This document shows, piece by piece, positions 1 through 49,801 of a DNA stretch of 64,000 bases. Numbering within the stretch: the stretch's first letter is position 1; every line of letters starts with the position of its first letter. Source of the DNA: Candidatus Eiseniibacteriota bacterium (lineage in GTDB: Bacteria; Joyebacterota; Joyebacteria; Joyebacterales; Joyebacteraceae); NCBI GenBank assembly GCA_043815815.1, contig JBDRIO010000009.1:2751-66750 (forward strand), given 5' to 3'. Under the pieces are notes generated by a model. The model made no database searches. It was not told the DNA's origin and saw only the letters and a list, made by a program, of their open reading frames with translations. Position numbers and translations under genes: made by a program.

Positions 1-1300
1 CGTCGTGACCGTACGTGTCGTTGATCTCCTTGAAGTCGTCGATGTCGCCCATCAGGAACCCGATGGGGGTCCCACTTCGCCTGGCGCGCGCGCTCTCGGT
101 GAGGATGAACTCCTCGTAGTGTCGCCGGTTGAACGCACCCGTCAGGGGATCGCGGATCGCCTGCTCCTTGAGGCGGTCGCGCAGACTGATGCGCTCGAGC
201 GCCTCGGCGGCGTGCCCCGAGAGCAGTTCCAGGAGGCGCGAGCTGTCCTCGTCGTCTATGCGTGAGACGCTCGAGAGGACGAGCAGAACGGCGGTGTCGC
301 CGATGGGCAGCGCGAGCCCCGAACGGAACCGGCAGAACCGGCGCGACTCGGAAACCTGTCCGGACGAGTCGAACGGCACCGCCATCTTCGCGGCCAGCGC
401 CTCACGCTCGACCCCCGCATCCGTGAGCGGCAGCTCCCTCCCGAGCCCGTCCGGAAGCTCGCACGAGGCGGCGCTCAGGTGGAACTCGCCGGCCTTCGCG
501 ACGTCGACGCAGCACTCCACGGACTCGAACATGCCTCGAACGGCGTCCAGGACGGTCGCGTGGACCGTCTCCTGGCTCTCGCAGCCCTCCAGGATCCGGG
601 CCGTCTCGTGAAGCTCCTCGATGCGACGTCGGGACACCGCCAGCGCCTCATGGCGCGCGGCGTCGTCCACGACGATGGCGGCCTGGGCCGCTATCAGTTC
701 GAAGCTGTCGATCTCGCCGCCCCTGAACGCGTCCGGCGTTCCGCTGCCGATGGCCAGCATCCCCAGGACGTCGTCGCCGACCCGCAGGATCGAGCTTCGG
801 AACGACATCACCTGTTGCGACGAGGAGCGATCGCACGCCCGTTCGCCTCGCGGGTTCAGATGACACGTGAGGATAGTACGCCTGCACTCGCCCTCGTCGA
901 GGGCGCGCCCCGTCTCTCCTGCGGCCGCCGCGAGCATGCTCGCGACGAACGAGTCGACGAAGTTCGACTCCGCGCGCTGCGACGCCCTGAGTCCGAGCGG
1001 CGACGGGGACGCCTGCAGGAGCAGAAGTCCGGCGACGTCGTAGTCGACGACCCTTCCCACAAGTTCGAGAAGGCGGTCGGTCATCCTGTCGTAGTCGAGG
1101 ATGTCGGCCGCTATCTCCCCCACCTTGGCCACGATCGTCGACCGGAAGAGCTCGCGGTCCAGGAGGCCGTTGGTCTGCGTGACGATCTGTACGGCCACGT
1201 CCGCCTTCGCGAGCCTCGACTCGAGCGCGGCGATCCGCAGAGCCTGTTCCTCGAGCGTGCGCCTGCACTCGTCCGTGCAGGGCCTGTCGCCGTCGTTCAT
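1..1300 (-). CDS. GAF-GAF-GGDEF diguanylate cyclase (3' end runs off the window)
   Basis: Not in the ORF track; read manually. ATG at 1300 overlaps the upstream stop (ATGA). The frame reads ...AIRDPLTGAFNRRHY...GFLMGDIDDFKEINDTYGHD at the window edge, after two GAF-like segments (LGMLAIGS...AAQAAIVVD). Confidence 0.88.
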   Translation of the reverse strand, partial: MNDGDRPCTDECRRTLEEQALRIAALESRLAKADVAVQIVTQTNGLLDRELFRSTIVAKVGEIAADILDYDRMTDRLLELVGRVVDYDVAGLLLLQASPSPLGLRASQRAESNFVDSFVASMLAAAAGETGRALDEGECRRTILTCHLNPRGERACDRSSSQQVMSFRSSILRVGDDVLGMLAIGSGTPDAFRGGEIDSFELIAAQAAIVVDDAARHEALAVSRRRIEELHETARILEGCESQETVHATVLDAVRGMFESVECCVDVAKAGEFHLSAASCELPDGLGRELPLTDAGVEREALAAKMAVPFDSSGQVSESRRFCRFRSGLALPIGDTAVLLVLSSVSRIDDEDSSRLLELLSGHAAEALERISLRDRLKEQAIRDPLTGAFNRRHYEEFILTESARARRSGTPIGFLMGDIDDFKEINDTYGHD

Positions 1301-1710
1301 GCGGACGCTCCGCGTCGGGGTCCGGGGTCCTTCATGCGGGCCCTCATCACGAACTGAACCAGACCTAGCAGCTCCTGCGGCTCGAACGGCTCCACCAGGT
1401 ACGCGTCCGCACCGGTCTGGACGCCCCAGAACTCGTCCTTTTTCTCCGTGTCGGAGGCGGAAGCCATGATGATCGGGATGTCCTTGTGCTCGTCGTCGTT
1501 CCTCAGAAGCCTGCAGACCTGGTACCCGTTCATGTCGGGGAGCCTGACGTCGAGCAGGATGAGGTCCGGCGCGTCCTCACGGACCCTCAGTATCGCCTCG
1601 ATCGCGTCGACCGCGCCGACCGTCTCGTATCCGGCCGACTCGAGGATCGCGACCTTGATCGCGAGAATCGTGGGGCTGTCTTCGACAACGAGAACTCTCG
1701 CCCTCGCCAT
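1297..1710 (-). CDS. single-domain response regulator (CheY-like)
   Basis: VLVVEDS...PDLILLDVRLPDMNG...GADAYLVEPF; the conserved Lys of KPF appears as Glu. Confidence 0.9.
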   Translation of the reverse strand: MARARVLVVEDSPTILAIKVAILESAGYETVGAVDAIEAILRVREDAPDLILLDVRLPDMNGYQVCRLLRNDDEHKDIPIIMASASDTEKKDEFWGVQTGADAYLVEPFEPQELLGLVQFVMRARMKDPGPRRGASA

Positions 1711-1724
1711 TGCTGTCTCCAGTG

Positions 1725-2783
1725 CTAAGGTCGCACGATCGTCGTGAGCCTCTCGGCGATGCCGCCCAGCGGGACGATGTGGCTGATCCAGCCGGCGTCA
1801 GCGGCGATCTTGTTCATGCCGTATATGAGCGAGCTGGCCTCGTCCTGAGCGAGCGTGAGCCCTCCCGCGTCCTGTATCGCCCTCATGCCGTCCACGCCGT
1901 CGCGGCCCATCCCCGTCATGATGACGCCGATCACCCCTGACCCGTAGGTCTCCGCGAGCGAGCGCAGCATCACGTCGGCCGACGGCTTGTGGAAGCACTC
2001 GTCGAAGCCCGCCTCTTCGAGCCTCATCCTGCGCTCGCGGGTCACGACGAGGTGCTTCCCCGCCGGCGCTATGTAGACGGTGCCGCCCTCGGGGATCATA
2101 CCGTCACGCGCCTCGACGACCTTGAGCGAGCATCCGGCGTTCAGCCAACTCGTGAGTCCCTGACTGAACCCTTCCGGGATGTGCTGCACGATGACCACGG
2201 GGACCGGCAGGTCCGCAGGCAGACGCGACAGGAGCTGCATGAGCGCCGGAGGGCCGCCTGTGGAAACGGCGATGCCGATGATCTTGTACTGACCCGGACG
2301 CGGCAGCCGCGCGGCCGGCGGTGTCTCGCGCGATCTGGAACGCGGGTGCGTGATGACGGAGACGCGCGCGCACACGCGCACGCGGGAGAGCAGGAGCGCC
2401 GCGTCCATGATGCCGCGGTCTCTGGCAGCAGCGTAGTCGAGCGCCCCCCGCTTCAGGGCCGCCATGCCGAAGGCCCTGTCGGCGTCGCCGTTCGACCCCA
2501 CGACCACGATCGGCGTGGGTCGAGTCGCCATGAGCTCCTGGATCGCCGCGAGTCCGCCCAGCGTCTCCATGCCGACGCCCATGACGACCACGGTCGGCCG
2601 TGTTCTCACGGCCTCCGCCACGAGTTCCTCGCCGCTCCCGACGGTCGCGACGACGCTCACGCTCGGGTCGCCGTCGATGGCTTCCCTGAGCGCGCTGCGC
2701 TTCGACTCGCAGTCATCGGCGACGATCGCTCGAATGGCCGCGTCCGATGTCCGGTCACGTTCGATCACTTCACGCGCCTCCAC
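1725..2783 (-). CDS. cheB: chemotaxis methylesterase CheB with atypical receiver domain
   Basis: Catalytic motifs AVSTGGP, VQHIP and MTGMGRDG, plus AQDEASSLIYGM; N-terminal REC domain. Confidence 0.93.
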   Translation of the reverse strand: MEAREVIERDRTSDAAIRAIVADDCESKRSALREAIDGDPSVSVVATVGSGEELVAEAVRTRPTVVVMGVGMETLGGLAAIQELMATRPTPIVVVGSNGDADRAFGMAALKRGALDYAAARDRGIMDAALLLSRVRVCARVSVITHPRSRSRETPPAARLPRPGQYKIIGIAVSTGGPPALMQLLSRLPADLPVPVVIVQHIPEGFSQGLTSWLNAGCSLKVVEARDGMIPEGGTVYIAPAGKHLVVTRERRMRLEEAGFDECFHKPSADVMLRSLAETYGSGVIGVIMTGMGRDGVDGMRAIQDAGGLTLAQDEASSLIYGMNKIAADAGWISHIVPLGGIAERLTTIVRP

Positions 2784-2822
2784 GGCGGGTGGATTCCGGA
2801 CCCCGCCCCCTCCGCCCGGTCG

Positions 2823-5123
2823 TCAACCTATCAGCCGCTGCACCGTCTCGAGCAGCTGGGCCTGGTCGAAGCTCTTCTTCCCCAGATACGCGCTGGCGCC
2901 GGCCTCCATGCCCTGGAGCCTCTCCTCGGCCGTGTCCTTCGAGGACACGACGATGACCGGCACGTCCGCGTACCGGCTCTCAGAACGCATGCGCCGGATC
3001 ATCTCCATACCGTCCATCCGCGGCATGGAGACGTCGGTGATCACGAGGGCGTACTCGCGCTGCGCCAGCATGCCGAGGCCCTCCACTCCGTCCTGAGCGA
3101 CGTCCACCTCGTAGTTGGCCGCTCGGAGGATCGACCGCTCCAGGTCGCGCGTGATGGCCGAGTCCTCGACGAGAAGGACCGCGCCGCGGCGCTGTTGAGT
3201 CTGCTCCGGGGCCGCACCCCCGGTCGCCGGGGAACAGACCGCGGACGCGTCCCGAACGATCGACGGGACGTCCAGGATCGGAACGACGCGTCCACTGCCC
3301 GACAACGTCGCGCCGGCGATGTGCTTCACGCGCACCAGGTGGCTCCCCAGGCTCTTGGCCACGACGTCGAGTCGACCGCCGAGGCCGTCAGCCACGAGCA
3401 CGAGCTTCGCACCGCCGGCCCGCACAACGACCGCTGGCAACCCGCGCTCCTCGGTGTCCTTGCCGGCCCCTCCGAGCTTGAGGGCCTCTCTCAGGCTGAC
3501 AAGCGGGATGATCTCGTCGCGGATGCAGACCGCCTGGCGGCCCTGGATCCGCTTTATCTCGTCGGCCCCCACGCGGAGGGTCTCCTCGATGCTGTCGAGC
3601 GGGAGAGCGAAGTCGCTGCCGCCGACCTTCACGATGAGCACCGACGTGATCGCCAGCGTGAGCGGCAGGCTCAAGGCGAACCTCGTCCACTTGCCGGACA
3701 CGGAGCTCACCTCGATCTGGCCCTTGAGCCTGGTGACGTCCTCCTTGACCACGTCCATCCCGACACCGCGGCCGCTCAGTTGCGACACGGCTCCTTGCGT
3801 CGTGAACCCCGGCTCGAAGAGCAGGTCGTACGTCTGCGCCTCGGTGAGCCTGCCGGCGTCGGTCTCGCTCACGATGCCGGCCTCCACCGCGGCCGCCATG
3901 ACCGCCTCGCTGTCGATCCCGCGGCCGTCGTCCTCGATCTCGATGATGACCTGCGAGCCCCGGCAGTACGCGCGAAGCTCGATCGTGCCCGTCGCGCTCT
4001 TTCCCTGTTTCTCGCGCTCGAGCGGCGACTCCAGCCCGTGTGCGACGGCGTTGCGGAGTATGTGCATGAGCGGATCTCTGATCTGCTCGAGCACGGTCTT
4101 GTCCAGCTCGGTGTCCTCGCCGGTGATCAGGATGCGCGCGGACTTGCCCTGCTCCCGCGCGAGATCGCGGACGGCCCGCGGGAAGCGGTCGAACACGACC
4201 TGGAGCGGGAGCATTCGCGTCTCCATGACGCGGTTCTGCACCTGCGAGACCGTGAAGGAGAGGCCGTCCGCGTCGCGTCGGAGCTCGTCGACCAGACCGC
4301 CGAGCCGCTTCGCGGCGTTGTGCCGGTCCGCTTCGTCCGCTTCCAGCGTCGCGTCGTTCGCGGGGTTTCCGTTCTCGAACGCGGACCGGTCGAGCCTGAG
4401 ACCACTCTCGTTACCGCGCGCGTCTGCGAGAAGCGTCTCCACGCTTCGCAGCCTCTCGTCGAGTCTCGTTCTCGCGATGACCAGCTCTCCCGCGAGGTTC
4501 ATGAGTTCGTCGAGCTTCGACACCTCGACGCGTATCGACTCCCGCTGCAACGCGTCTGCCCCGGCGGAACGCTCGGAGACGTCCCGGGGCGCGACCGCGC
4601 CGCTCGGGGCCTCCCGGTCCGTCCGGCGCGACCTCATGGCCTCCGCCGACGGCCGCGACGGCAACGCTGCCTGCGTCGGAGCCTCCGTGTCCGAAGGAGC
4701 TGCGGCGCGCGGCACGTCCGACGTCGCCGCGCCAGAAGCTACCACGGATGCGCGCGGCCCGTCCGACGCCGCTCCGTCGGAACCCGCGGGAGCGCGACCT
4801 GCATCCAGCCCCTGCGCGATCCTGTCGAGCATGCCGAAGAGACTCTCGAAGCTCACCTCGTCGTCCGGCGAGTCGCAGTCGGTCATCGTGAGCAGCGAGT
4901 CCTCGAAGTCGTGCGAGAGCCGCGCGATGTCGTCCAGGCCCATCATGCTGGCGGCGCCCTTCATCGTGTGCGCCTCCCTCATCATGTTCTCGACGAGCGC
5001 ACGGTCTCCCGGTTTCGTCTCGAGCCTCAAGAGGTCCCGCTCGATGTTCGCGATGTGCTCCGCGGACTCCTCGCTGAAGCGAGCCATGAACGCGGTCTTG
5101 TCGAATGCGCCCTGGGTATTCAC
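2823..5123 (-). CDS. cheA: hybrid chemotaxis kinase CheA (HPt-dimerisation-HATPase-CheW-REC)
   Basis: REAHTMKG, SIRVEVSKLDELMNLAGEL, HILRNAVAHGLE, DDGRG, SGRGVGMDVVK, PLTLAI; C-terminal REC (ITDVSMPRMDG). GTG start directly abuts the MCP stop. Confidence 0.95.
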   Translation of the reverse strand: MNTQGAFDKTAFMARFSEESAEHIANIERDLLRLETKPGDRALVENMMREAHTMKGAASMMGLDDIARLSHDFEDSLLTMTDCDSPDDEVSFESLFGMLDRIAQGLDAGRAPAGSDGAASDGPRASVVASGAATSDVPRAAAPSDTEAPTQAALPSRPSAEAMRSRRTDREAPSGAVAPRDVSERSAGADALQRESIRVEVSKLDELMNLAGELVIARTRLDERLRSVETLLADARGNESGLRLDRSAFENGNPANDATLEADEADRHNAAKRLGGLVDELRRDADGLSFTVSQVQNRVMETRMLPLQVVFDRFPRAVRDLAREQGKSARILITGEDTELDKTVLEQIRDPLMHILRNAVAHGLESPLEREKQGKSATGTIELRAYCRGSQVIIEIEDDGRGIDSEAVMAAAVEAGIVSETDAGRLTEAQTYDLLFEPGFTTQGAVSQLSGRGVGMDVVKEDVTRLKGQIEVSSVSGKWTRFALSLPLTLAITSVLIVKVGGSDFALPLDSIEETLRVGADEIKRIQGRQAVCIRDEIIPLVSLREALKLGGAGKDTEERGLPAVVVRAGGAKLVLVADGLGGRLDVVAKSLGSHLVRVKHIAGATLSGSGRVVPILDVPSIVRDASAVCSPATGGAAPEQTQQRRGAVLLVEDSAITRDLERSILRAANYEVDVAQDGVEGLGMLAQREYALVITDVSMPRMDGMEMIRRMRSESRYADVPVIVVSSKDTAEERLQGMEAGASAYLGKKSFDQAQLLETVQRLIG

Positions 5124-6602
5124 TCAGTTCTCCATGGATGACTGCCGCCCCTGGGTCTCGTTGGCTTCCTTGAGAAAGGCCTGCTTCAAGCCCCCCTCCC
5201 CGTCGCACGCGGCGGCGTTCCGCCCGTCGCCGTGCGCGTCGTTCGACAGATGGAACGCCTTCACGGACTCGGTCAGATTCACGGCGAGACACGACAGCTG
5301 TTCCGAGGACGCGGCCACCTGTGTCGCGGCCGCGGCCGATTCCTTGACCGCCTCGTCGACGGAGGACATGCTCTGCGATATCTCCTCGCTCGCCGACTCC
5401 TGCTGCTGGCTCGACAGCGAGATCTGCTCTGCGGCGGCGACGACCTCGCCGAACGCCTCCTCGATCTCCTTGAGCCTTTCGCCGACCTGCTGCACGAGTG
5501 CTACGCCCTGGTCCGTCTCCTCCGTCGACTGCTCCATGCTCATGACGCAGGACGACGTCTGCTGCTGAATCTCGGCGATGAGGTCGGATATCTCGCGGGT
5601 CGAGCGCGTCGTGCGCTCCGCGAGCTTCCCGATCGCCGCCGCCACGACCGCGAACCCCTTCCCCGCCTCGCCGGCGCGCGCCGCCTCGATCGCCGCATTC
5701 AACGAGAGAAGCGTCGTCTGGTCCGCGATGTCCTCGATGAGCGTCACGATCTCGGTGATGGCCTGCGAACTCTCTCCGAGCCCCTCGATCTTCCGGGCGG
5801 TCGACCCCACCGAGTCCCGAATCTGGTTCATGCCGCCGACGGCCTCCTCGGAAGCGCCGATGCCGCTTCGCACGGCCCCGAGGCTGTTCGACGAGGACTC
5901 CGCGATGCCGCGGCTGTGACCCGCCACCTGTCTCGACGTGGCGGCGAGTTCCTTGCCGGCGGCCGCGACCTGAGAGATCTGGGCGGCCTGCTCGGCCGCC
6001 GCGGTCGCGTCGCGCTGAGAGGCCGCGCGCATCTGGCAGGAGGCCGCGGCGACTTCGCTGGAACCCCGCCGTATGTCGCCCACCAGCGTCTCAAGAGAAC
6101 CCGCCATCGAGTTTATCGCCCCACCGAGCTTGCCGATGATCTCGACGCCGGATTCCTCCGACGCCCTTGCCGAGAGGTCTCCCCCGTTCAGCATGCCGAT
6201 GACACCGAACGACTCGGCCAGGCCTATGGCCACCTCGTGAGCGTCGTCGACGAGCGAACCCACGCCCTCCGCGGCGGCGTTCACGCCCGCCACGAGACCG
6301 GCGACCTCCGGGTCTCTGAACGACGCCTCCACGCGAGCCGTCGGGTCTCCCAGCTCGATCCTCGCAAGGACCCGCCCGCATTCGTGGATGCCGCCGGCCA
6401 GTTCCTTGATGCGCCTCGAGGCGGCCACGGCCCACATCGCCAGGCCTCCCGCCACGCAGGTCAGAACCGAGGCGAACACCACGAGTGTCCCGCCGCCCAA
6501 CGAGCCGCGATTGACGAGCAGCACGACCACGAGGGCAGCCGCTGCAGCCGCCGGGAACCAGGTTCGCCCCTTGAGCGGCGCTCCGATCGATCTCCATCTC
6601 AT
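5124..6602 (-). CDS. methyl-accepting chemotaxis protein
   Basis: Hairpin tip [30 protein letters not shown]; two closely spaced N-terminal TM helices; HAMP-like repeats. Confidence 0.93.
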
Positions 6603-6644
6603 GCGATTCGCCCCGCTTCCTTTGGTGTCTCCGATGTCCTCAGA

Positions 6645-6869
6645 CTAGAACTGGATCTGGATCGCCTGCTTGCCGTCGCCGAGATCCTGGACGGAGAGAC
6701 AGACCTTGTTCATGCGCTGGCACCAGACCCTCAGGTCCTTCTCGAACGTCGGGCAGTCGCCCGTGACCTCGATCACGTCACCCGGGCTCACGTCCGGAGC
6801 CGTGACCGCAAGCTTAAGAACGGGCTGCGGGCACTTCATCCCTGTCGTATCGAGTCTCGTCGTCTGCAT
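6645..6869 (-). CDS. tusA: TusA/SirA-family sulfur carrier protein
   Basis: LDTTGMKCPQPVLK (CPxP motif), GDVIEVTGDCPTFEKDLRVWC; GGAGG SD before the ATG at 6869. Confidence 0.88.
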   Translation of the reverse strand: MQTTRLDTTGMKCPQPVLKLAVTAPDVSPGDVIEVTGDCPTFEKDLRVWCQRMNKVCLSVQDLGDGKQAIQIQF

Positions 6870-6947
6870 GTCCTGCCTCCTGTCAACCCTGTGAGGCCCA
6901 CCGCTCCCGAACGCCACGTTCGGGACGCGTGCGCACTCCACCTTCGC

Positions 6948-8678
6948 TTAGTGCCGGACCGCCGGGTCGGCTTCGCGCGTCCCCTGCGAACTCAGCACGT
7001 CTCCGTCAACACTGCTGCCGGCGGCAAGGACGACGTCGACCGCCGCGTCCTGCCGCAGTTTGAACACCCTCGCCGACTCCTTCAGCTCGACCGCGAGCTG
7101 CGACAACTGGGCTGCAGACGCCGCCACCTGAGAGGCCGCCGCGGCCGACTCCTTCACGGCCTCGTCGATGCTCGACATGCTGGATGAGATCTCCTCGCTC
7201 GCCGACTCCTGGTGCTGGCTCGAGAGGGAGATCTCCTCCGCGGCGGTCGCGACCTCGCTGACGGCCACCTCTATCTGCCTGAGCCGGTTCCCCGCCTCCT
7301 GGACGAGTCCCGCTCCGCGTTCTGTCTCGGCGGTGGACTTCTCCATGCTCATCACGCACGCGGACGTCTGCTGCTGGATCCCGGAGATGAGATCGGAGAT
7401 CTCGCGCGTGGACTTGGTTGTGCGCTCGGCCAGCGTCCCGATCGCCTCGGCGACGACCGCGAACCCCTTGCCTGCCTCACCGGCGCGCGCCGCCTCGATG
7501 GCGGCGTTCAGCGACAGGAGGGTCGTCTTGTCCGCGATGTCCTCGATGAGCGTCACGATCTCAGTGATGGTCTGGGAGCTCTGACCCAGGCCTTCGATCT
7601 GACGCGCCGTGGCCCTGACCGACTCCTGTATCCCGCTCATGCCGGCCACCGCGTCCTCGGCGACCGTGAGCCCCGCCTTGACCGCGCCCATGCTCCCGTT
7701 TGAGGAGTCGGCGATCGACCGGCTGCGCTCCGAGACCTGCCTCGCGGTGGCGGCGAGCTCGCGGCTGGCCGCGGCCACTTCGGAGATCTGAGCCGCCTGC
7801 TCCGCGGCCGCCACGGCGTCCCGCTGCGACGCCGCCAGTATCTCGGTCGACGCCGAGGCGACGTCCGATGCTCCGCTCCGTATCCGCAGCACCAGGCCGT
7901 TCAGCGCGTCGGCCATGGCGTTGAAGGCGTTGGAGAGGTCGCCGCTCAGGTCGACCCTGTACCTCAGGTCGCCCGCCGCGATCGACTTCGCCTGGTCGGC
8001 GAGCAGTAGCATCTGGTCTCCCAGCTGGTTCAGCACGCCTCCCAACTTGCCGACGATCTCCACGTGAGACGTGTCCGACGCCCTGACCGAGAGATCTCCG
8101 GCGATCATCATGCCGATCACGCCGAAGGCCTCCGCCAGACCTATCGCCACCTCGTGCGCGTCGTCGACCAGGCTCGCCACGCCGTCGGCCGCCCCGTTGA
8201 CGCTGTGGACCAGGCCGCAGACGAGCTCGTTCTCGAAGTCCTCTTCGACGCGCGCCGACGGGTCACCCTGCTCGATCCTGTTGAGCACGCCCTGGCACGC
8301 CCGTATGCCCTCGGTCAGCTCCGTGGCCGTGACCTCCGCGGCCTCGCGCGTCTCGCGAACGGTCCGGTCCACCATGGCGAGCGTCTCCTCGAGGTCTCTG
8401 ACCTCGGCGCTCGCGGCGGAGCCGATAGCGCGCTCGAACCTGCCGGTGCGCGCGGTCGCCGCGGCGTCGGTCAGACGCCTGACCGGCCTCACGATCGTCA
8501 GGTCTACGATGAACCACACCGCCCCCGTGGCCACCACGCCCAGGAGCGCTGCCGCTCTCACGAACGCTGCCTCCAGCCCGTGCCCGGGCGTCAGCGCCGC
8601 GAGCAGCACGAGCCCCGCGCACGTGGGAACGCATACGGCTCCCAGACGTCTTCCGGTCGTCCATTCCAGTTTCATCAT
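6948..8678 (-). CDS. methyl-accepting chemotaxis protein
   Basis: [30 protein letters not shown]; two TM helices and poly-HAMP; ATGA overlap with the mvhD stop. Confidence 0.93.
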
Positions 8679-9289
8679 GCGTCACCTCGCCCATGCTGCG
8701 ATCCGTACTCCGTCGTATCTTCCGACCGCGTTCGCGGCGTCGTCCAGTCGTCCACTTCGGCCACGGCCTCTGCCGGGACGCCGTCCTTGAGACACGGCCT
8801 CCCGCGGGGTCCCAGCTCCCGGAGCGTATCGACCATCTCGGTCAGGACGCGCCCGAAGCGCTCGCTCTCGCTCGCCGATACCCAGTCGAGCCTGAGCCTT
8901 CCCTCCTCGATCCCGAACTGCGCGAGCACTCTCTTGAGGAAGACGCTCCTCCGCATCGCGTTGTGGTTCCCGTCCCGGTAGTGGCAGTCGCCGGGGTGGC
9001 AACCCAGGATCAGCACGCCGTCCGCGCCCTCGGCGAAGGCCTCCAGCACGAACTGCGGGTCGATCCTGCCGCTGCACATCACCCTGATCGGCGTGAAGCT
9101 CGCGGGACTGGGGACGCGCGCCCTGCCGGCCGCGTCGGCCCCCTCGTACGAACACCAGTTGCAGAGGAACACGATCACTCGCGGCTCGAACGCGGACTGC
9201 CCGTCCGTCTGCCCCGCCACGTCGCTCTCGAAGGCGGTCAGCCCGTCCGTCGTCCGCTCCACATGTCTGTCGGTTGCGCGCCTGGTCAT
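8675..9289 (-). CDS. mvhD: MvhD/FlpD-type [2Fe-2S] hydrogenase delta subunit
   Basis: [53 protein letters not shown]; ATG at 9289 overlaps the hdrA stop (ATGA). Confidence 0.93.
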
Positions 9290-11265
9290 CTCAGAGCCCC
9301 CCGGATCTCCGCGCTGATCTGCGCGTCGTCGAAATGCATGGCGGAAGCGGCGCCGGAAGGACACGCGGCAGCGCACGTCCCGCACCCGCGACAGAGCGTG
9401 TCGTCCGCCCGAATGAGTCCGTCCTCCCTGCCGCGCTTCATGGCCCCGAACGGACACACGGACACGCAGACGCCGCATCGCGAGCAGGCGTCGCCGTCGA
9501 CCGTCGCTACCGTCGCCTCGAGGACCAGTCGCTCGCCCGGAACGAGGCTCTGAAGCACCTTGCCCGCGGCGGCCTGTCCCTGTGCCACGGCAGTCTCTAT
9601 GTCGCACGGCCCTCTCGCCGCTCCCACGACGAAGACGCCCTCGCTCGTCGTCGAGACCGGCGCGAGCTTCGCGTGAACGCTCTCGAGGAAGCCGGACGCG
9701 TCGTCGGGCGGAGCGATCTCGAACAGCTCCGCGAGCCGCGCCGCGTCGCTCCCTCCCTCCATCGCGGGCGCCAGAACGACCACGTCGCACTCGCGGCTCA
9801 GGATCTCTCCCTGCGCGCTCACGTACGTCACGACGGGACGACCGTCCCGTTCCTCCACCTTCACGGAGCCCGGCTCCATCGTGCGAAGGAACTCGACCTT
9901 GCCGTCCGCGAGGAGTTCCCGGTGCAGCCTCTCGGCGCCCCTGCCCGGCAGGCAGAGGTCGGCGCAGAGGTCGAGCACGCGCGCGTCCGGGAGCTGCTTT
10001 CTGATGAGGTGGGCGAACTTGAGCATGTACCCGCAGCACACGCCGGAGCAGTAGGAGTGGAACTCGCTCGTCCGGGACCCGACGCAGTGAATGAGGGCCA
10101 CCGTATCGGGCTCGTCCCCGGACGCCTTGACGACGCGACCGTCGGTCGGGCCGTTCGAGCTCAGCATGCGCTCGAACTCGAGCGCGTCGCGGACGTCGGG
10201 GATCGTCCCCCAGCCGTATCGGCCGGCGGTCTCCGAATCGAACAGAGTGAACCCCGTGGCGAGCACCACGGCGCCGACCGTGAGTTCGCGCGAGACGTCC
10301 TCCTGCGAGTAGTCTATGGCCCCGAACGGGCAGGCGGCAGCGCACGCGCCGCAGGGCTCGCCCTCGCCCGCTTCGCCGTCGGCGTAGCGGGGACAGGCGT
10401 TCCTGTCGAGCGCCGGAACGCTCGGCAAGGCACCCGCGAACGGCGTGTCGATGGCGGCGCGCTCGCCCTGTCCTGCGACCTGGGGGTCTGGGACACGCAC
10501 CGGACACGCCTGCGCGCACGTTCCGCATCCGATGCAGCTGCCGATGTCGACCGAGCGCGCGTGTGTCGTCACGCGGACGGTGTAGTTGCCGCGGCTGCCC
10601 AGCACCTCAGCGACCTCCGTACCCGTGAGGACCTCTATGCGATCGTTGTGCAGGAGCTCGTCCATCATCGGCTCGAGCATGCAACTGGCGCACTCGAGAC
10701 CCGGGAACACGTCCTCGCACCTGACGGTGGACCCTCCGACCCACGGCTCCTTCTCCACGACGTACACCTTGCGCGCCTTCTGGGCCATCGTGAGCGCCGC
10801 GCTCATGCCGGCGACTCCTGCCCCGACGACGAGCGCGTCGGGCATGCAGTCGATCTCCCTGGCCTCGAGCGGCGCGTGACGCGCGACCCTGTTCACCGCG
10901 GCGCGGATGAGGCGCCCGGCCTTCTCCGTCGCGAGGGCGGTGTCCCTGGTGACCCACGCGCACTGCTCCCTGATGTTCGCCATCTGCAGCAGGAAGGGAT
11001 TGAGCCCCGAGCACTCGAGGACTCCCCTGAACGTCTTCTCGTGCTCCTTGGGGGAGCACGCGGCGACGACGACGCGGGTCAGGCCGTGCTTCCGCACCGC
11101 GTCCTCGATGACGCGCTTCCCCTCGTCCGAGCACAGCAGCCGATGCCGCTCGGCGTGAACCACGCCCGGCAGGCCGGACGCGCGGCTCACGAGCTCTGCG
11201 ACGTTCATAGCGTCCCCGATGTTGGGACCGCACTCACACACGAAGACGCCCGTTCGCTCGCCCAT
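9286..11265 (-). CDS. hdrA: heterodisulfide reductase subunit A-like flavo-iron-sulfur protein
   Basis: GVFVCECG, VAACSP, NIREQCAW, Rossmann VVGAGVAG, HCVGSR...YCSGVCC, four ferredoxin-type Cys clusters (e.g. CIGCGTCAQACP, CRGCGTCAAACPSGA); 659 aa; SD GGAGG. Confidence 0.95.
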   Translation of the reverse strand: MGERTGVFVCECGPNIGDAMNVAELVSRASGLPGVVHAERHRLLCSDEGKRVIEDAVRKHGLTRVVVAACSPKEHEKTFRGVLECSGLNPFLLQMANIREQCAWVTRDTALATEKAGRLIRAAVNRVARHAPLEAREIDCMPDALVVGAGVAGMSAALTMAQKARKVYVVEKEPWVGGSTVRCEDVFPGLECASCMLEPMMDELLHNDRIEVLTGTEVAEVLGSRGNYTVRVTTHARSVDIGSCIGCGTCAQACPVRVPDPQVAGQGERAAIDTPFAGALPSVPALDRNACPRYADGEAGEGEPCGACAAACPFGAIDYSQEDVSRELTVGAVVLATGFTLFDSETAGRYGWGTIPDVRDALEFERMLSSNGPTDGRVVKASGDEPDTVALIHCVGSRTSEFHSYCSGVCCGYMLKFAHLIRKQLPDARVLDLCADLCLPGRGAERLHRELLADGKVEFLRTMEPGSVKVEERDGRPVVTYVSAQGEILSRECDVVVLAPAMEGGSDAARLAELFEIAPPDDASGFLESVHAKLAPVSTTSEGVFVVGAARGPCDIETAVAQGQAAAGKVLQSLVPGERLVLEATVATVDGDACSRCGVCVSVCPFGAMKRGREDGLIRADDTLCRGCGTCAAACPSGAASAMHFDDAQISAEIRGALR

Positions 11266-11329
11266 GGATCCTCCAGTTCGTCGTTCAAATGCGCGCCCGG
11301 CTCGCGTGGCCGTCCGCGCCCGCGTTCGT

Positions 11330-11878
11330 CTACTCGAGGACGGTCCGCTCCGACCGCGTCACGCTCTCCACGTCCAGGAGCGTGAGCACCGTGCTGTCCT
11401 CCAGACGGACCTGCCCTCTCGACAGGGCAGCCTCTGCCTCCGGAACCGTCGACAGCGGTGGCTGGATGCTGTCGGCGGTCACGGTCAGAACCGCCCCCAC
11501 CTCGTCCGCCATGAGTCCCGTCACCATTCCGCCGCTCTCGACGACGACGATCCGCGTGTCGAGGCGGGGCTCCATGTGCCCGGTCCGCATGAGGCGGAGC
11601 AGGTCTATGACCGACGTCACCGAGCCGCGCACGTTCGCCACGCCCACGACGTGGTCCGGAAGGTGCGGCAGCTTCGTGACCGGCTGCATCTCCAGTACCT
11701 CGATGACCGAGGTCACGTCGATCGCGTACCACTCGTCGCCGAGCGAGAACGACAGGAGCGTGAGTTCGTCGGTGACCGTGACGTCGTCCCCGTACCCCTC
11801 CGCCGCGTCCTCGTAGAGATAGAGCCCGTCCGTGGAGAACGAATCCCCCGTGTCGGTCTCCGGTCGTTCAGTTTCCAT
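11330..11878 (-). CDS. cheW: chemotaxis coupling protein CheW
   Basis: LLSFSLGDEWYAIDV..VIEV, LPHLPDHVVGVANVRGSVTSVIDL. Confidence 0.92.
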   Translation of the reverse strand: METERPETDTGDSFSTDGLYLYEDAAEGYGDDVTVTDELTLLSFSLGDEWYAIDVTSVIEVLEMQPVTKLPHLPDHVVGVANVRGSVTSVIDLLRLMRTGHMEPRLDTRIVVVESGGMVTGLMADEVGAVLTVTADSIQPPLSTVPEAEAALSRGQVRLEDSTVLTLLDVESVTRSERTVLE

Positions 11879-12401
11879 CCTCGCCTCCGCTGTTCATCTC
11901 TCCGAAGATCTGAGACCCGGTGCCCAGAGGACCCGCCAGGTCGGTGTCGACGACGACATCCAGGTCGAGCATCAGCACGATCTCGTCGCCCATCCTGGCA
12001 ACGCCGCTCACGCAGTCGGGAGCGCCCAGCCCCGCGGGCGGCTCCGAGACGTCGTCCGCGTGCGTCTGCCAGATCCTGGTGACGGCGTCCACGACCATGC
12101 CCGCCATCCCGCTCTTGGTGCGCACCACCACGATGCGCCGTTCGATGTCGTCCTCCGCGGGCTCGGCGCCGAGCCGCTCGCGGAGCCCGAGTATCGGGAT
12201 GACCCTGCCCCTGATGTCGACCACGCCCCGAACGAACGACGGAACGCCCGGCACGGGCCTGACGTCGATGAGCGGATTGACGCCCAGTACCGAGTCGACA
12301 TCTACGCAGTACTCACATCCGGCCACCTGGAAGCAGACTACGTCCAGCATCTGCTGTGCGCGGCTGCCTGCGGCCGCTGGTGTCGTGCCTTCAGTCCGCA
12401 T
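11868..12401 (-). CDS. cheW: chemotaxis coupling protein CheW (second copy)
   Basis: VPGVPSFVRGVVDIRGRVIPILGL, GMVVDAV; SD GGAGG before the ATG at 12401, which lies inside the cheR 3' end. Confidence 0.9.
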   Translation of the reverse strand: MRTEGTTPAAAGSRAQQMLDVVCFQVAGCEYCVDVDSVLGVNPLIDVRPVPGVPSFVRGVVDIRGRVIPILGLRERLGAEPAEDDIERRIVVVRTKSGMAGMVVDAVTRIWQTHADDVSEPPAGLGAPDCVSGVARMGDEIVLMLDLDVVVDTDLAGPLGTGSQIFGEMNSGGEDGN

Positions 12402-13905
12402 CGTTCCTCCGGATCTGGTCCAGCGTTTCGAGCGCGTTCCTGTACTCGCGCTCAGCGTCCCACTCGAGTCCCATCTCTCTGTAGAGCCCCGCGATAGTGA
12501 AGCGCGCCAGGCTGTGGCCGGGGTCCAGGTACACGCACCGCCTGAGGTCTGCGAGCGCGGTCTTGGGCTGCGCCATCCCCTTGTGAATGAGCCCCATGAG
12601 GAAGTGCGGCTGCGCAGCCAGTCCGTCAAGGCCTATGGCGCTCCTGCAGCTCTCCTCCGCTTCGTCCAGTCGTCCCGCGCCGGCCAGGATCTCCGCCATG
12701 AGCGCGAACGCGCCGGGCGATGCCGGGTCCAGATCCAGGGCCCTGCGAGCGGCTCGCTCGGCTCTCTCGAGGTCCTCTTCTGCGAGCCAGGCCGCAGCCT
12801 CCCGCGCGAAGGTCCCTGCGTCAGCGGTCGTGTGCTCCGGAGTGGCCTGCTTCGGGCCGACGTGCTCCGGCTTCGCGTGCTCCGGGGTGACCTGCTTCGG
12901 GTCGACGTGCTCCGGCCTCGCATGCTCCGGCTTGGCGCGCTCCGTAGCCGAACGCCCCGGTCCGGCATGCTCCGGCCTGACACGCTCCGTAGCCGCACGC
13001 TCCAGCCTGGGCGGAAGCGTCTCCCTCCCGCGCGGAGCGGTCTCGCGATGCGCGCCGCAGCGGTGAGGGACGTCCTCGGTCCTCACGTAGACGAACGTGC
13101 GTCCAACTCGTTTGGCCTTGAATCGGGCGCTCAACCGGCTCGGCGACTCCGCCGCGCCGGCGAACAGGTAGCCTCCCGGCGACAGCCAGTCGTGTATCCT
13201 CTCGAGCACCGCGCCGGCCGTCTCCTGGCTGAAGTAGATGACGACGTTGCGGCAGAAGATGATGTCGAACGTCCCGTCGGGCTCGTAGTCGAGCAGATTG
13301 GTCTCCAGGAACTCGACGTGCCTGGCGACGTCGCTGCTCACGAGCAGTCCGCAGTCGCTGAGATCGCAGTGCCTCTGCATGTGTCCGATCCACTCCGAGC
13401 CTACGTACTTGAGCGCCTCGTTCGCGTATCTGCCGGAGCGGGCGACGGCCAGCGCGTCCGGGCTGATGTCGGCGGCGATGACCTCGAAGGGCAGCGAGAC
13501 GCCGCAGCGGTGAGCTTCGAGCAGTACAGCCGCGATCGAGTAGGGTTCCTCTCCGGTGGAGCAACCGGCCGACAGCGCTCTCACGGGGCCCTGGTCGCCG
13601 GAGGCCCTACGCCTGGCGACGATGCGCGGAAGAACGATGTCTCTCAGTGCTGCGAACTGCCCCGGGTCTCTGAAGAACCGTGTGTGGCCGACGGTGAGGA
13701 GCTTCACGATCTCGGTGAACTCCGTCCCGACGCCGGCGCAAGAATTCAGGAGCGCGTGGTAGTCGTCCGCCGTCCGGCAGCCCGACGCGGCCATGCGCTC
13801 GCCCACGAGACCGTTCAACGTCGGGAGATCGTGCTCCGGCACCACGATGCCCGTGCGCTCTGCGATGAGACCGCGTATCTTCTCTGCTGCCGGACCGACG
13901 GCCAC
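12391..13905 (-). CDS. cheR: CheR methyltransferase with C-terminal TPR domain
   Basis: TRFFRD, SAGCSTGEEPYSIA, FDIIFCRNVVIYF, then TPR helices; GTG start at 13905 after GGAGAGG. Confidence 0.92.
   Translation of the reverse strand: MAVGPAAEKIRGLIAERTGIVVPEHDLPTLNGLVGERMAASGCRTADDYHALLNSCAGVGTEFTEIVKLLTVGHTRFFRDPGQFAALRDIVLPRIVARRRASGDQGPVRALSAGCSTGEEPYSIAAVLLEAHRCGVSLPFEVIAADISPDALAVARSGRYANEALKYVGSEWIGHMQRHCDLSDCGLLVSSDVARHVEFLETNLLDYEPDGTFDIIFCRNVVIYFSQETAGAVLERIHDWLSPGGYLFAGAAESPSRLSARFKAKRVGRTFVYVRTEDVPHRCGAHRETAPRGRETLPPRLERAATERVRPEHAGPGRSATERAKPEHARPEHVDPKQVTPEHAKPEHVGPKQATPEHTTADAGTFAREAAAWLAEEDLERAERAARRALDLDPASPGAFALMAEILAGAGRLDEAEESCRSAIGLDGLAAQPHFLMGLIHKGMAQPKTALADLRRCVYLDPGHSLARFTIAGLYREMGLEWDAEREYRNALETLDQIRRNDAD
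12825..13010 (-). repeat. degenerate 15-bp coding tandem repeat (PEHAK/PEHVD/PKQVT units) in the CheR linker
   Basis: Recurring tgctccgg/ttcggg motifs at 15-nt spacing. Confidence 0.8.
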
Positions 13906-13996
13906 TGAGACACCTCTCCGCGATGACGGCCCGGCGAAACAGACCGTTGAAGCGAGACGGGATCCCCCCTGAACGCACCTAATCGACACGTCAGGG

Positions 13997-14013
13997 TGCA
14001 ACTGACGTGCCAA
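13997..14013 (-). promoter_or_regulatory. sigma-54 (-24/-12) promoter of the chemosensory operon
   Basis: Minus strand reads TTGGCACGTCAGTTGCA, matching TGGCACG-N4-TTGC, about 90 nt upstream of cheR. Confidence 0.8.
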
Positions 14014-14132: not shown

Positions 14133-15374
14133 TCAGCGGTACAGCGCCTTCACCTTACCCCAGCTCGACTCCTCGACCGGCGAGTCGCAGCCCTGGTCGA
14201 GCGCGCCGACCAACTGGCCGCACGGGCTCACGCTCGCGAGACAGGGAGATGTGTCGTAGAGCCGGTAGTCGGCTCCATCGAACCAGCAGAATTCCGGATC
14301 CTGCGAGAAGTTGTTGTCGATGCCGGTCTGGTCGCCAACGACGGCGTCGTAGTTGCCGTCGGGGTTTCCGTAGACGTCGCAGCAAGTGAGCGTCGGTTCC
14401 TGCCCTTCGTCGGCGCCAACTCCAAACCCCGGCCCGTTGAACGCGATGATCGAGTTCTCGACAGCCCCGGTCCCCGCGAAGCAGTAGACGCCGGCCGCGT
14501 CGGAGGCCGCGGAGTTCTCGACGATCGTGCAGTTAGAGACCGTCCCGCCCAGGAGCCACACGCCGCCGGAGTGGCCGTAGAGCGCATCGTTCCTGGCGAT
14601 CTCGCAGTTGACCAGACTCATGTTGCCGAACATGCGCACGCCGCCGGCCCGCGGGGCCGTGTTGCTGACGATCCGGCAGTAGCTGAACTCGAGGTACGCT
14701 CCGGCGGTCGCGTAGACGCCTCCGGCCAGCCCCTGGAACCCGTCCACCTCGTTGTCCCCGATGAGGCAGCCGTCGAAGTTGCCCCCGGCCGACCAGACCG
14801 ACACGCCTCCGCCGTAGCCGCCGCTGTTCCCCGTGATCGTACAGAGGCTAATGAGCACGTCGGCGCCGTCGCTCACGTACAGACCACCACCTCTGGTGTC
14901 GTCACCCTCGGCTGTGCAGTTCGCGATGATGACGTCCGCGAGCACCGCGTCAACGCCCTCGATCCAGATGCCGCCGCCGTGAGTCGTCGTGTATCCGTTG
15001 ATGACGGCCACGTCCTCGAGCCACGGAATGGCATCCCCGGGCGTGAAGTGGAAGCCCCGGTGCTCCTCGCGGGCGCTCCCCTGGCAGTCGATGATGCAGA
15101 CCATCGCGTCCCAGCTCTCCGAACGGATCGTGAAGGTGACGGCGGGAACGACGATGTCACGGTTCCCCGGGCCGGTGTACGTCCCGTCCGCCAGCAGAAT
15201 GACGTCGCCGGTCCCGGCGGAGTCGACGGCCGCCTGGATCGTCGCGAAGTCCCCGGTCCCCTCCGGGTTGACCACGTAGGTCGTGGCGAACGCGGCACCA
15301 TGGGCGAGAGCGAGCGTGAAGACGACACACAGACAGACGACGCGCAGGTGAACGACCGCGTTCGCGGTGCGCAT
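14133..15374 (-). CDS. secreted right-handed beta-helix (pectin-lyase-like) protein with SWG-type C-terminal tail
   Basis: Signal peptide; GDFATIQAAVD..GDVILLADGTY; repeated GGG(I/V)/N motifs; ends CDSPVEESSWGKVKALYR; SD GGGAGG. Confidence 0.8.
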   Translation of the reverse strand: MRTANAVVHLRVVCLCVVFTLALAHGAAFATTYVVNPEGTGDFATIQAAVDSAGTGDVILLADGTYTGPGNRDIVVPAVTFTIRSESWDAMVCIIDCQGSAREEHRGFHFTPGDAIPWLEDVAVINGYTTTHGGGIWIEGVDAVLADVIIANCTAEGDDTRGGGLYVSDGADVLISLCTITGNSGGYGGGVSVWSAGGNFDGCLIGDNEVDGFQGLAGGVYATAGAYLEFSYCRIVSNTAPRAGGVRMFGNMSLVNCEIARNDALYGHSGGVWLLGGTVSNCTIVENSAASDAAGVYCFAGTGAVENSIIAFNGPGFGVGADEGQEPTLTCCDVYGNPDGNYDAVVGDQTGIDNNFSQDPEFCWFDGADYRLYDTSPCLASVSPCGQLVGALDQGCDSPVEESSWGKVKALYR

Positions 15375-15520
15375 GAGACCCTCCCAACATGCAGATGCCC
15401 GAACCTCACTCCGGTTCGGGCATCGTATCACACATCCGGACTCTCGACCAGCCGGCCCCCGGAAGGTACGCCTGACACGGTCCGCCGAAGCGTCTTCGTG
15501 TCGCTGCAGCGCGCGCCGCG

Positions 15521-16426: not shown

Positions 16427-16471
16427 CTCGGCTCACCTCCTCGTCCCGTTCCCTGCGTCCGCCGCATCATT

Positions 16472-16500
16472 ATTGTACCACCGTTCAGCATCGAAATCAA
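16472..16500 (-). promoter_or_regulatory. sigma-70-type promoter
   Basis: TTGATT-N17-TACAAT on the minus strand upstream of 16426. Confidence 0.65.
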
Positions 16501-16764
16501 GGAAGTGTTCCGGTAAAGTGTTGCAGCGTGGCAAGGAGACGCCGCGGGCTGCGTGCCCGCGACTCCCTCGTGCCACCGTTCGCGGGAAGCGCCGGGCTGA
16601 CGGCACGCGCCTCCAGCGGTCAGCCCCGCCGCCCTCGCGCGCCGACCTGGGCGATGGTATCCTTGTCTCTGTGACCGCTCACATCGCCATCCCTTCGGCA
16701 CTCAGCCGCGATGGCGCCGACGCACCAGTCAACCTCGACGCGTCACCAACGGAGGTGCTCCCCC

Positions 16765-18609: not shown

Positions 18610-18662
18610 CCTGCCGCACGCGGGACCGTCGTCGTGGTCAGGTAGCTTCCGAAGGAGACCGG

Positions 18663-41991: not shown

Positions 41992-42049
41992 TCACTCCGG
42001 CGCCGCCGGCCTACGGCGCCGCTTGAGGGCGCCGCGGCCGTCACAACGA

Positions 42050-42081
42050 AGCGGGCTGCCCCCACCTGGGGACAGCCCGCT
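42050..42081. terminator. hairpin between convergent genes
   Basis: agcgggctg-ccccc-acct-gggga-cagcccgct. Confidence 0.6.
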
Positions 42082-42121
42082 GTTCTTCCTGGTGAGCCGT
42101 CGCTCTCGCGACGCTGGACCT

Positions 42122-43747
<1,626 letters not shown>

Positions 43748-43772
43748 CTACCTCCCTGCTGACAGTCCCCGG

Positions 43773-46532: not shown

Positions 46533-46674
46533 TCGACGCTCCGTGAGAAGGGGTACTCGAACATCGCGGGCAGCCCGCCGAGCACTGGACGCGTCGGGCC
46601 TCTCGCTGACAGGGCCCTGGGTGTCGCTCGCGGACGATCCGTCAGCCGTCGCTGTGATGGCCCGGCTACCGGCT

Positions 46675-47535: not shown

Positions 47536-47593
47536 CGTTCTCTCTCCGATTCTCCGGGCGTCCGTCCTGGAGTCGCCGCGGCGCCCGAGGCCT

Positions 47594-49801
<2,208 letters not shown>

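Follow-up and report, generated by a model that had tools for sequence, protein, structure and literature searches.

A chemosensory operon with HdrA-MvhD and TusA as a candidate redox/sulfur input module in a Candidatus Eiseniibacteriota bacterium

Wsp-type pathways, of the 'alternative cellular function' (ACF) kind, are chemosensory systems that control a diguanylate cyclase, and energy or redox taxis is known from receptors such as Aer (FAD-PAS), Aer2 (haem-PAS together with poly-HAMP) and the CZB receptors. The MvhADG-HdrABC complex of methanogens is the reference system for the function of HdrA and MvhD, with MvhD bridging the [NiFe] hydrogenase (MvhGA) to HdrA in Mvh-Hdr systems, and TusA-family proteins hold sulfur on the Cys of a CPxP motif. 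Here we describe an operon from a stretch of 64,000 nucleotides of a Candidatus Eiseniibacteriota genome (assembly GCA_043815815.1, contig JBDRIO010000009.1; this whole stretch is called the window in the following), in which hdrA, mvhD and tusA stand among the genes of a chemosensory pathway having a pair of methyl-accepting chemotaxis proteins (MCPs) and an output through cyclic di-GMP (c-di-GMP). Most likely, the operon encodes a chemosensory pathway of the ACF kind whose candidate redox/sulfur input module is operon-encoded and previously undescribed; through HdrA-MvhD and TusA the cell would most likely monitor its redox, hydrogen or sulfur state.

The likeness to Wsp comprises two CheW proteins, a CheA-REC fusion, CheB, a CheR with TPR repeats (CheR-TPR), membrane-bound MCPs, a c-di-GMP output and the absence of a flagellar target. 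The output is here split between a stand-alone receiver (REC) protein and a GAF-GGDEF cyclase, whereas Wsp has one REC-GGDEF protein; the window has two MCPs, neither with a periplasmic domain; and the receptor genes have hdrA-mvhD and tusA set among them, an arrangement that to our knowledge is not known from any Wsp-like cluster. With Aer, Aer2 and the CZB receptors, the operon shares the cytoplasmic redox sensing via an MCP that we propose herein, and its MCPs have a poly-HAMP build as in Aer2, but its cofactors would be carried by separate proteins (of 659, 204 and 74 aa) instead of by the receptor. As judged from the encoded proteins, the ACF class is pointed to by one feature alone, the CheR-TPR, which is a marker of ACF clusters (PMC3447774).

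A redox metalloenzyme encoded beside a kinase, a cyclase or an MCP is also found among the sensory hydrogenases, with HydDB giving [NiFe] group 2b as a histidine-kinase-linked H2 sensor, group 2c as putatively diguanylate-cyclase-linked and [FeFe] group C2 as putatively 'chemotactic' and MCP-linked, and listing the Hdr-linked group 3c only as bifurcating and metabolic (PMC5037454). The HdrA clade to which the window's protein belongs does have a [NiFe] hydrogenase next to transducers; that hydrogenase is, however, Mvh-type as judged by Pfam and by its HdrA-MvhD context and is accompanied by HdrA and TusA, and the window's operon has no hydrogenase subunit at all, with a second MCP in that place. 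In common with MvhADG-HdrABC are a long HdrA with all of the Fe-S Cys residues and the FAD fold, a five-Cys MvhD, the adjacency of hdrA and mvhD, and an MvhGA encoded in the genome; a bacterial example of hdrCBA-mvhD(GA) clusters in anaerobes is found in PMC4911364. The differences are that no HdrBC is encoded beside the window's HdrA or its tusA-linked relatives (one weak match in locus L031 apart), that a three-Cys TusA is present instead, that HdrA has Cys140 and Cys438, and that the genome has a separate hdrCBA-mvhD cluster on contig C23. As for the sHdr systems, these involve DsrE, TusA and rhodanese (PMC11094781), and transfer of sulfur from TusA to SoxR and sHdrR has been proposed but not shown (PMC11582611). 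A TusA encoded with an Hdr-type flavoprotein and the idea of TusA passing a sulfur signal to a regulator are thus shared, but the partner here is a long Mvh-linked HdrA, the TusA has a YedF-like DCP Cys, and the signal is proposed to be received by an MCP, kinase or sigma-54 activator in place of an ArsR-type repressor. We found no account of hdrA or mvhD within a che cluster, nor of hdrA-mvhDGA-tusA beside transducers, in the main texts of open-access papers and bioRxiv preprints; PMC12142623, PMC4911364, PMC9855816 and PMC3543383 proved to have no bearing on such a cluster.

The operon as a block of twelve genes

Searches with Pfam and NCBIfam profiles gave 12 genes, all on the minus strand at window positions 1-14013 (Table 1), with the transcription order cheR-TPR, cheW, cheW, hdrA, mvhD, mcp1, tusA, mcp2, cheA-REC, cheB, REC and GAF-GGDEF cyclase. 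The entire operon is about 14.3 kb long (G000:C9:2425-16763, with G000 being the window's genome), the C-terminal part of the cyclase lying beyond the start of the window, with about 325 nt more (G000:C9:2425-2750). The core set of MCP, CheW, CheA, CheB and CheR is present in full, each above its Pfam cut-off. Intergenic gaps across the operon range from -11 to 78 nt, with three 4-nt overlaps, the GTG start of cheA abuts the mcp2 stop with zero gap, and no terminator-like sites were seen on the minus strand within the operon. ATGA overlaps, read directly, join hdrA to mvhD (9286-9289) and mvhD to mcp1 (8675-8678), which suggests translational coupling of the three genes. No match to HdrB, HdrC, MvhG or MvhA was obtained within the 64-kb window (tblastn, E<=1e-3). 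Gene order, both overlaps and the absence of hdrBC and mvhAG from the window had all been reported in a preliminary description of this DNA, and they held when examined in this way. The third-position GC of codons was 0.86-0.90, typical for real genes.

Sequence contigs of a metatranscriptome run from a groundwater study (X2) matched the operon free of mismatches at 1484-1803, 6593-6851, 7879-8225, 8300-8659, 9431-9721 and 12344-12596, and one of them crosses the tusA/mcp2 junction. This lends weak support to expression, since DNA may occur in RNA libraries and a contig does not prove a single transcript; 9 of 30 bins were uncovered by X2 contigs, which is not evidence of absence. Contigs from another metatranscriptome run (X5) gave no match to the operon.

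Genomes have the operon either as one complete block or not at all, and it is the lineage's only chemosensory system. Among the 31 genomes of the order (one family, 8 genera), the che-type HdrA was found at 68-69% identity in four (G000, G019, G021 and G023), and MCP signalling domains occurred in exactly those four, two apiece; when a completeness of at least 90% and a contamination of at most 5% were required, 3 of 20 genomes had an MCP. All three CheW domains and both MCPs of the window's own genome (65.6% complete) lie within this operon. The four other genomes of the same genus, being 90, 57, 96 and 94% complete, have HdrA paralogues that are only 41-43% identical. In three genomes of that genus (G031, G033 and G034) both flanks of the operon are kept at 64-78% DNA identity with the operon itself missing, its place being taken by 2.7 to 6 kb of unrelated DNA having no match to the operon proteins. 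No flagellin was found in any of the 31 genomes, type IV pili not having been searched for. With the only MCPs of the order encoded in this block and no flagellin, the operon is best understood as a self-contained accessory pathway with c-di-GMP output, and not as a system for flagellar chemotaxis.

The preliminary description had named conservation across genomes as a check, with a unique arrangement speaking against its proposal. The arrangement recurs: the full 12-gene order is also present in L022 and L023, with a cut contig in L024 holding hdrA-mvhD-mcp1 only, these three being loci in genomes of another genus, and among metagenome contigs L104 has the full order, L105 begins inside hdrA and L106 has hdrA-mvhD-mcp1 only. 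The same gene order in other genomes and in metagenome contigs argues that the operon is not a misassembly. The stand-alone REC is 75-80% identical in L022, L023 and L104, and the cyclase has an orthologue of 61-62% identity in the same position of each. Misbinning of contig C9 was also considered and found unsupported, with a GC content of 0.66-0.68 on all 33 contigs and with both flanks matching genomes of the same genus. With regard to a mobile element or other gain and loss, a comparison of the flanks of L023 with those in the window showed only a distant beta-helix protein to be shared.

The proteins and their relatives in other phyla

Every Cys column conserved over 44 aligned HdrAs is also Cys in the window's HdrA, including the N-terminal set, CxxC 192/195, two inserted sets, 394/406/410/411 and two C-terminal ferredoxin sets, and Pfam gave FAD/Rossmann matches at residues 143-183 in addition to Fer4 matches. 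The match to NCBIfam HdrA2 covers model positions 1-640 of 777, with a score under the equivalog cut-off of 1100. In MvhD the match to FlpD (PF02662) spans model positions 1-123 of 123, and Cys43, 46, 72, 97 and 102, conserved in 18 of 18 aligned MvhDs, are all kept. With these cofactor residues intact, HdrA-MvhD looks functional as a working redox module. Two more Cys residues of HdrA are specific for its clade, with Cys140 found in 93% of tusA-linked HdrAs against 0% of the others, and Cys438 in 89% against 6% (window about 10846-10848 and about 9952-9954, respectively). Cys140 is placed three residues ahead of the FAD-binding GxGxxG strand. It is conceivable that Cys140 and Cys438 could form a redox-active pair in place of HdrBC.

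The origin of this HdrA was evaluated in a quick IQ-TREE phylogeny of 44 full-length HdrAs, covering 41 of 66 related loci, the other 25 being excluded because their HdrA matches were partial, split or contained in a larger multi-domain frame. A branch with 95% SH-aLRT support separated 28 tusA-linked HdrAs from 16 others, among them the genome's own paralogues on contigs C13 and C23. The three che-type HdrAs formed a clade (100%) that was sister (96%) to L028 and deltaproteobacterial metagenome-assembled genomes (MAGs). Constraining the three with the genome's own paralogues lost 313 log-likelihood units and gave p-AU 3.4e-7 in the approximately unbiased (AU) test, for which the group was chosen after the tree was seen. 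A recent duplication of a resident HdrA was rejected by the tree and this test. In the window's genome there are at least four further HdrA paralogues together with five MvhD domains, including a canonical hdrC-hdrB-hdrA-mvhD cluster at C23; HdrB and HdrC are not encoded alongside the window's HdrA, and hdrCB is found elsewhere, beside the C23 paralogue. The preliminary description had asked for such an HdrA tree, which placed the window's protein in a distinct clade and not with the hdrCBA-linked paralogues of the genome. Its view that the pair had been recruited needs correcting in so far as the origin is not a generic Hdr complex but a clade without adjacent hdrBC, which stands beside transducers already in several phyla. 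As a separate observation, eight genomes of the order have an HdrA paralogue whose frame contains a single TGA, its position being conserved (at G000:C29:65075-67015 in the window's genome, and in G010, G031, G032, G007, G008, G009 and G014), and from its sequence this paralogue looks like a selenocysteine HdrA.

The wider clade has a recurrent gene order. Of the 66 related loci, 31 have tusA, and in 26 of these 31 the order is hdrA-mvhD-mvhG-mvhA-tusA, with the middle pair being [NiFe] small and large subunits by Pfam and with the hycI protease added in some loci. MCP1 of the window's lineage occupies the position that mvhG-mvhA have in these related loci. A signal transducer directly follows tusA in 26 of the 31, being an MCP in 22 and a two-CW/PAS protein in four, of which the latter are sigma-54 activators in L026 and L025 (L025 cut at the contig end) and hybrid kinases in L033 and L063; no transducer follows tusA in L044, L045 (contig cut) or L046. 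The one Nitrospirota receptor scanned, that of L035, is a CZB-HAMP protein, to which other receptors with Nitrospirota labels are 59-89% identical. In L028, one strand carries cheA-REC, cheB, hdrA, mvhD, mvhG, mvhA, hycI and tusA in succession, only small gaps lying between them. Among the 35 loci without tusA, an MCP adjoins hdrA in only one (L053), and HdrB/HdrC homologues flank hdrA in 20, as seen in the flanks examined; in the 31 tusA-linked loci, the window and L104-L106, no HdrB or HdrC was found except one weak CCG match 8.5 kb away in L031. TusA hence seems to hold the place of HdrBC in this clade, with HdrBC found beside the loci lacking tusA and missing from those having it. The members of the clade come from Nitrospirota, Thermodesulfobacteriota, MAGs labelled Armatimonadota and Gemmatimonadota, one Thermoplasmatales archaeon and the window's family.

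Two side observations concern transducers and sulfur enzymes within these loci. The four two-CW/PAS transducers (L025:15682-17386, L026:6309-9035, L033:15132-17831 and L063:14800-17349), all from deltaproteobacterial and Desulfobacterales MAGs, have a cysteine-rich two-CW start followed by a di-HAMP-like module and PAS; the two-CW domain corresponds to NCBIfam NF045718 (37 bits with a cut-off of 35, tested on L026) and could be a metal or redox sensor. The Thermoplasmatales archaeon MAG has, at L061:4567-13301, a triple-rhodanese protein, a soluble HAMP-MCP on the opposite strand, a regulator of the AsnC type, DsrE, TusA and an HdrA that is split or in several pieces.

The hydrogenase subunits that are missing from the operon were found elsewhere, with mvhG-mvhA-hycI at C28 of G000 giving proteins 69% identical to those of L035, and with the same genes in its relatives G001 to G003. 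Together with the hdrCB at C23, this answered another check of the preliminary description, namely a search for hdrBC and mvhAG in the rest of the genome. H2 may therefore be the input even though the window lacks mvhAG. MvhA of the C28 type is, however, a core protein that occurs in 28 of the order's 31 genomes, whether or not these have the che operon, and is 91-94% identical within the genus. The expected co-occurrence of mvhGA with the che operon was thereby rejected, so that a partnership between the che-type HdrA and MvhGA has no phyletic support. At 6022-12057 of locus L097 (G000:C28:6000-25000), mvhG-mvhA-hycI stand alone, divergent from REC-HisKA-HATPase and REC genes, and further along are a 756-aa NAD-binding/Fer4_20/Pyr_redox_2 fusion and a Cache-HAMP kinase; with the REC-kinase, the REC and the Cache-HAMP kinase nearby, the core hydrogenase also has signalling neighbours.

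The TusA-family protein of the operon, whose likely start is the ATG at 6869 preceded by GGAGG, has its cysteines at C13 (in CPQP), C39 (in DCP) and C50. Its active-site Cys aligns with the motif of the solved E. coli TusA (1dcj, 3lvj), and C39 aligns with an Asp in that protein and with a Cys in YedF (1je3). All 26 aligned HdrA-linked TusAs have C13 and C39, the third Cys being usual, whereas the other TusA of the genome, at C31, has the ordinary ADDP form. The scores are under the NCBIfam equivalog cut-offs for both TusA (32.6 against 78) and YedF (25.7 against 79). The CPxP active site named in the preliminary description was thus present, but the invariant extra Cys in a YedF-like DCP gives thiol/disulfide chemistry the same likelihood as the persulfide carriage named there.

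In both MCPs the first approximately 65 residues include two hydrophobic segments, leaving no space for a periplasmic domain in a hydropathy scan, and neither has a sensor domain known to Pfam, in agreement with their having been described as sensor-less. They are 61% identical to each other, MCP1 carrying two additional HAMP units, and give a partial NCBIfam match to Aer2 that is far under its cut-off. A highly conserved di-HAMP-like stretch in both has an invariant Cys (MCP2 Cys75) and His (MCP2 His122). Cys75 is invariant in either MCP paralogue from the window and from L022, L023 and L024 (7 of 7 sequences, and 6 of 6 in a second alignment), and Cys352 in the signalling domain is a second invariant Cys. 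The di-HAMP-like module is common to the window's MCPs and the two-CW/PAS proteins of L025, L026, L033 and L063. That it would be a receiver domain specific for tusA was nonetheless rejected in a five-genome search, which found 10 copies in G004 and 6 in G006; the same search gave two copies each in G000 and G001 and one in G005, all of these in MCP or kinase genes flanking or following tusA. At the output end, the REC and GAF-GGDEF genes are the last two of the operon with a 4-nt overlap, and the translated cyclase has its GGDEF motif and an RxxD I-site intact.

Complex prediction of TusA with a dimer of MCP2 residues 58-200 gave an ipSAE of 0.54 (runs 0.36, 0.55 and 0.54) compared to 0.28 for the best of three controls, with contacts agreeing to at least 90% and a partner pLDDT of at least 82, and was graded as weak support. 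Of 80 solved complexes, 58 came up to the calibration mark, as did 2 of 110 mismatched pairs, but at an ipSAE of at most 0.60 it was met by only 7 of the 80 and by both mismatches, so that a pass in this range is more often wrong than right unless the complex is likely beforehand. The physical link behind the signalling from TusA to the MCPs that the preliminary description had put forward thus has weak computational support.

Table 1. Genes of the operon, listed by position in the window
Product	Position	Strand	Basis
GAF-GGDEF diguanylate cyclase, 541 aa	1..1300	-	Pfam GGDEF 129.1 bits, GAF_2 36.9 bits
Stand-alone receiver (REC), 137 aa	1297..1710	-	Pfam Response_reg 83.5 bits
CheB methylesterase with REC domain	1725..2783	-	Pfam CheB_methylest 209.1 bits, Response_reg 40 bits
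CheA histidine kinase (Hpt, dimerisation, HATPase, CheW-like) with C-terminal REC fusion	2823..5123	-	Pfam
MCP2, membrane hairpin, di-HAMP-like module and MCP signalling domain	5124..6602	-	Pfam MCPsignal 144.9 bits, alignments, hydropathy
TusA-family protein, 74 aa, three Cys	6645..6869	-	Pfam TusA 54.7 bits (cut-off 28.6)
MCP1, paralogue of MCP2 with two extra HAMP units	6948..8678	-	Pfam MCPsignal 137 bits, HAMP 27.4 bits
MvhD ([2Fe-2S] electron-transfer subunit family, FlpD), 204 aa	8675..9289	-	Pfam FlpD 164.4 bits (cut-off 22.3)
HdrA, 659 aa, long methanogen-type flavo-iron-sulfur protein	9286..11265	-	NCBIfam HdrA2 603.7 bits
CheW coupling protein	11330..11878	-	Pfam CheW 122.3 bits
Second CheW	11868..~12401	-	Pfam CheW 103.3 bits; start inferred as ATG 12401, open frame up to 12629
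CheR methyltransferase with C-terminal TPR repeats	12391..~14013	-	Pfam CheR 153.6 bits, several TPR families; start codon uncertain

Directly upstream of cheR, at window positions 14133-20694, are two PAS-GGDEF proteins (15521-16426 and 19816-20694) and three secreted-looking beta-helix, PMP-repeat or FlgD_ig proteins, one of which has a weak, sub-cut-off match to a secretion tail. These genes place the operon in a c-di-GMP/surface-protein neighbourhood, which is conserved in genomes of the same genus that lack the operon. The remainder of the window encodes housekeeping proteins (PEPCK, UvrB and one with an LpoB domain) along with secreted proteins of the beta-helix or FlgD_ig kind. The 2-kb bins 42001-44000, 46001-48000 and 52001-54000 have a marked AT skew of -0.24, -0.17 and +0.25, with a GC content of 0.72 at 52-54 kb.

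How the module may act, and rival explanations

We propose that HdrA-MvhD sets the state of TusA and that the two sensor-less MCPs read this state, or the complex itself, thereby driving CheA and c-di-GMP synthesis, a reading to which we give slightly better than even odds (about 0.55). HdrA-MvhD, with its FAD, Fe-S clusters and [2Fe-2S] center, would take electrons from a cellular donor, possibly H2 via the core MvhGA encoded elsewhere or else reduced ferredoxin or another carrier, and with these electrons it would determine whether the three-Cys TusA is in a thiol, disulfide or persulfide state. That state, or the HdrA-MvhD complex, would be read by the cytoplasmic di-HAMP region of both MCPs, with the signal passing through CheA-REC and the REC protein to the GAF-GGDEF cyclase and c-di-GMP. 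What we infer is that electrons flow to TusA, that TusA signals to the MCPs, and what the signal is. The proposal builds upon the presence or absence of the operon as one block, the placing of hdrA-mvhD-tusA between cheW and the receptors with overlapping genes, the lack of any other sensor on the lineage's only two MCPs, and the repeated pairing of the clade with transducers of different outputs. The sensory role that had been suggested for HdrA-MvhD in the preliminary description is accordingly the best supported one, as based upon the 12-gene unit, the only MCPs of the order and the lack of flagellin.

Several points weigh against this proposal. The evidence is wholly computational, the window's genome is only 65.6% complete, and the TusA-MCP prediction was only a weak pass. 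The di-HAMP-like module is generic, as seen from its 10 copies in G004 and 6 in G006. The 26 transducer loci are not independent of each other, with 19 of the 22 MCP cases having Nitrospirota-type labels, and with so many from one phylum they reflect few independent events, by arrangement about six or seven. Transducers of other phyla bear sensors of their own (CZB in Nitrospirota, two-CW and PAS in deltaproteobacterial MAGs) and may therefore need no input from TusA, and the kinase or sigma-54 neighbours could just regulate transcription of the hydrogenase operon. Finally, the resident MvhGA is most likely the partner of the canonical hdrCBA-mvhD cluster at C23, and that the che-encoded pair would use it is guesswork.

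The rival that survives best, although we regard it as unlikely, is that hdrA-mvhD-tusA encodes a working enzyme of metabolism (a reductase, for instance, that depends on H2 or ferredoxin and acts on TusA-bound sulfur or disulfide) that is merely co-expressed with the che genes, with the MCPs sensing something else such as the membrane or turgor stress proposed for Wsp. The usual form of the clade is indeed a full hydrogenase operon (hdrA-mvhD-mvhG-mvhA, sometimes with hycI) that looks catalytic, the tusA-hdrA of L061 is found in the metabolic context of rhodanese and DsrE sulfur transferases, and both the generic nature of the di-HAMP-like module and the sensor domains of transducers elsewhere would fit as well. 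Speaking against such a passenger are its place within the operon, flanked by cheW and the MCP genes and with ATGA overlaps leading into mcp1, its co-presence or co-absence with the che genes over the 31 genomes, and MCPs with no other recognisable sensor; the association with che or MCP genes is moreover found in several arrangements, these being the window type, L028, L053, L038, the Nitrospirota type and L061.

It is less probable still that TusA acts as an accessory that modifies the receptors, by persulfidation or disulfide exchange at an invariant Cys, and serves adaptation or gain-setting beside CheR and CheB without being the primary stimulus. The invariance of MCP2 Cys75 (7/7; 6/6) together with Cys352 in the signalling domain would suit this, as would the sulfur that TusA-family proteins carry on their CPxP Cys and the hand-over of TusA sulfur to SoxR and sHdrR, itself proposed but not shown (PMC11582611). 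The invariant Cys weighs little, with only six to seven closely related MCP sequences behind it, and complex prediction yielded no interface. That the three genes are functionless leftovers after a loss of mvhGA, as might be thought of an operon without the hydrogenase subunits found in 26 of 31 clade loci, is very improbable considering the intact cofactor Cys residues of HdrA and MvhD, the open frames, the 68-80% identity and same order of hdrA, mvhD and tusA in a second genus and in metagenome contigs, and the third-position GC of 0.86-0.90 as in real genes.

Beyond the window, we tentatively suggest, while considering it rather less probable than our proposal for the operon itself, that the whole tusA-linked HdrA-MvhD(GA) clade may be a dedicated sensory device and not a catabolic enzyme, which would sense H2, low-potential reductant or sulfane sulfur and use the three-Cys TusA as a protein messenger to interchangeable MCPs, hybrid kinases and sigma-54 activators. 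The window might then, with the same reservation, represent the most stripped-down form, in which a second receptor replaces the hydrogenase subunits and the device is wired to c-di-GMP.

For non-motility chemosensory pathways it is rarely known what the stimulus is and how metabolic state reaches a sensor-less receptor, and here the candidate input proteins are encoded in the operon. Having no other MCP in the lineage, no flagellin found and 12 genes that are present or absent as a block, the system should be unusually clean to reconstitute. The finding also bears on the role of the many HdrA paralogues without adjacent hdrBC in anaerobes, and on whether Mvh-type hydrogenases can sense, with sensory roles being assigned in HydDB only to 2b, 2c and [FeFe] C (PMC5037454). 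If the proposal is true, a TusA that links a flavoenzyme with receptors as a protein messenger would amount to a new principle of signalling, and if the sensory reading holds for the entire clade, it would define a new chemosensory input class and a new signalling role for Hdr-type flavoproteins and TusA.

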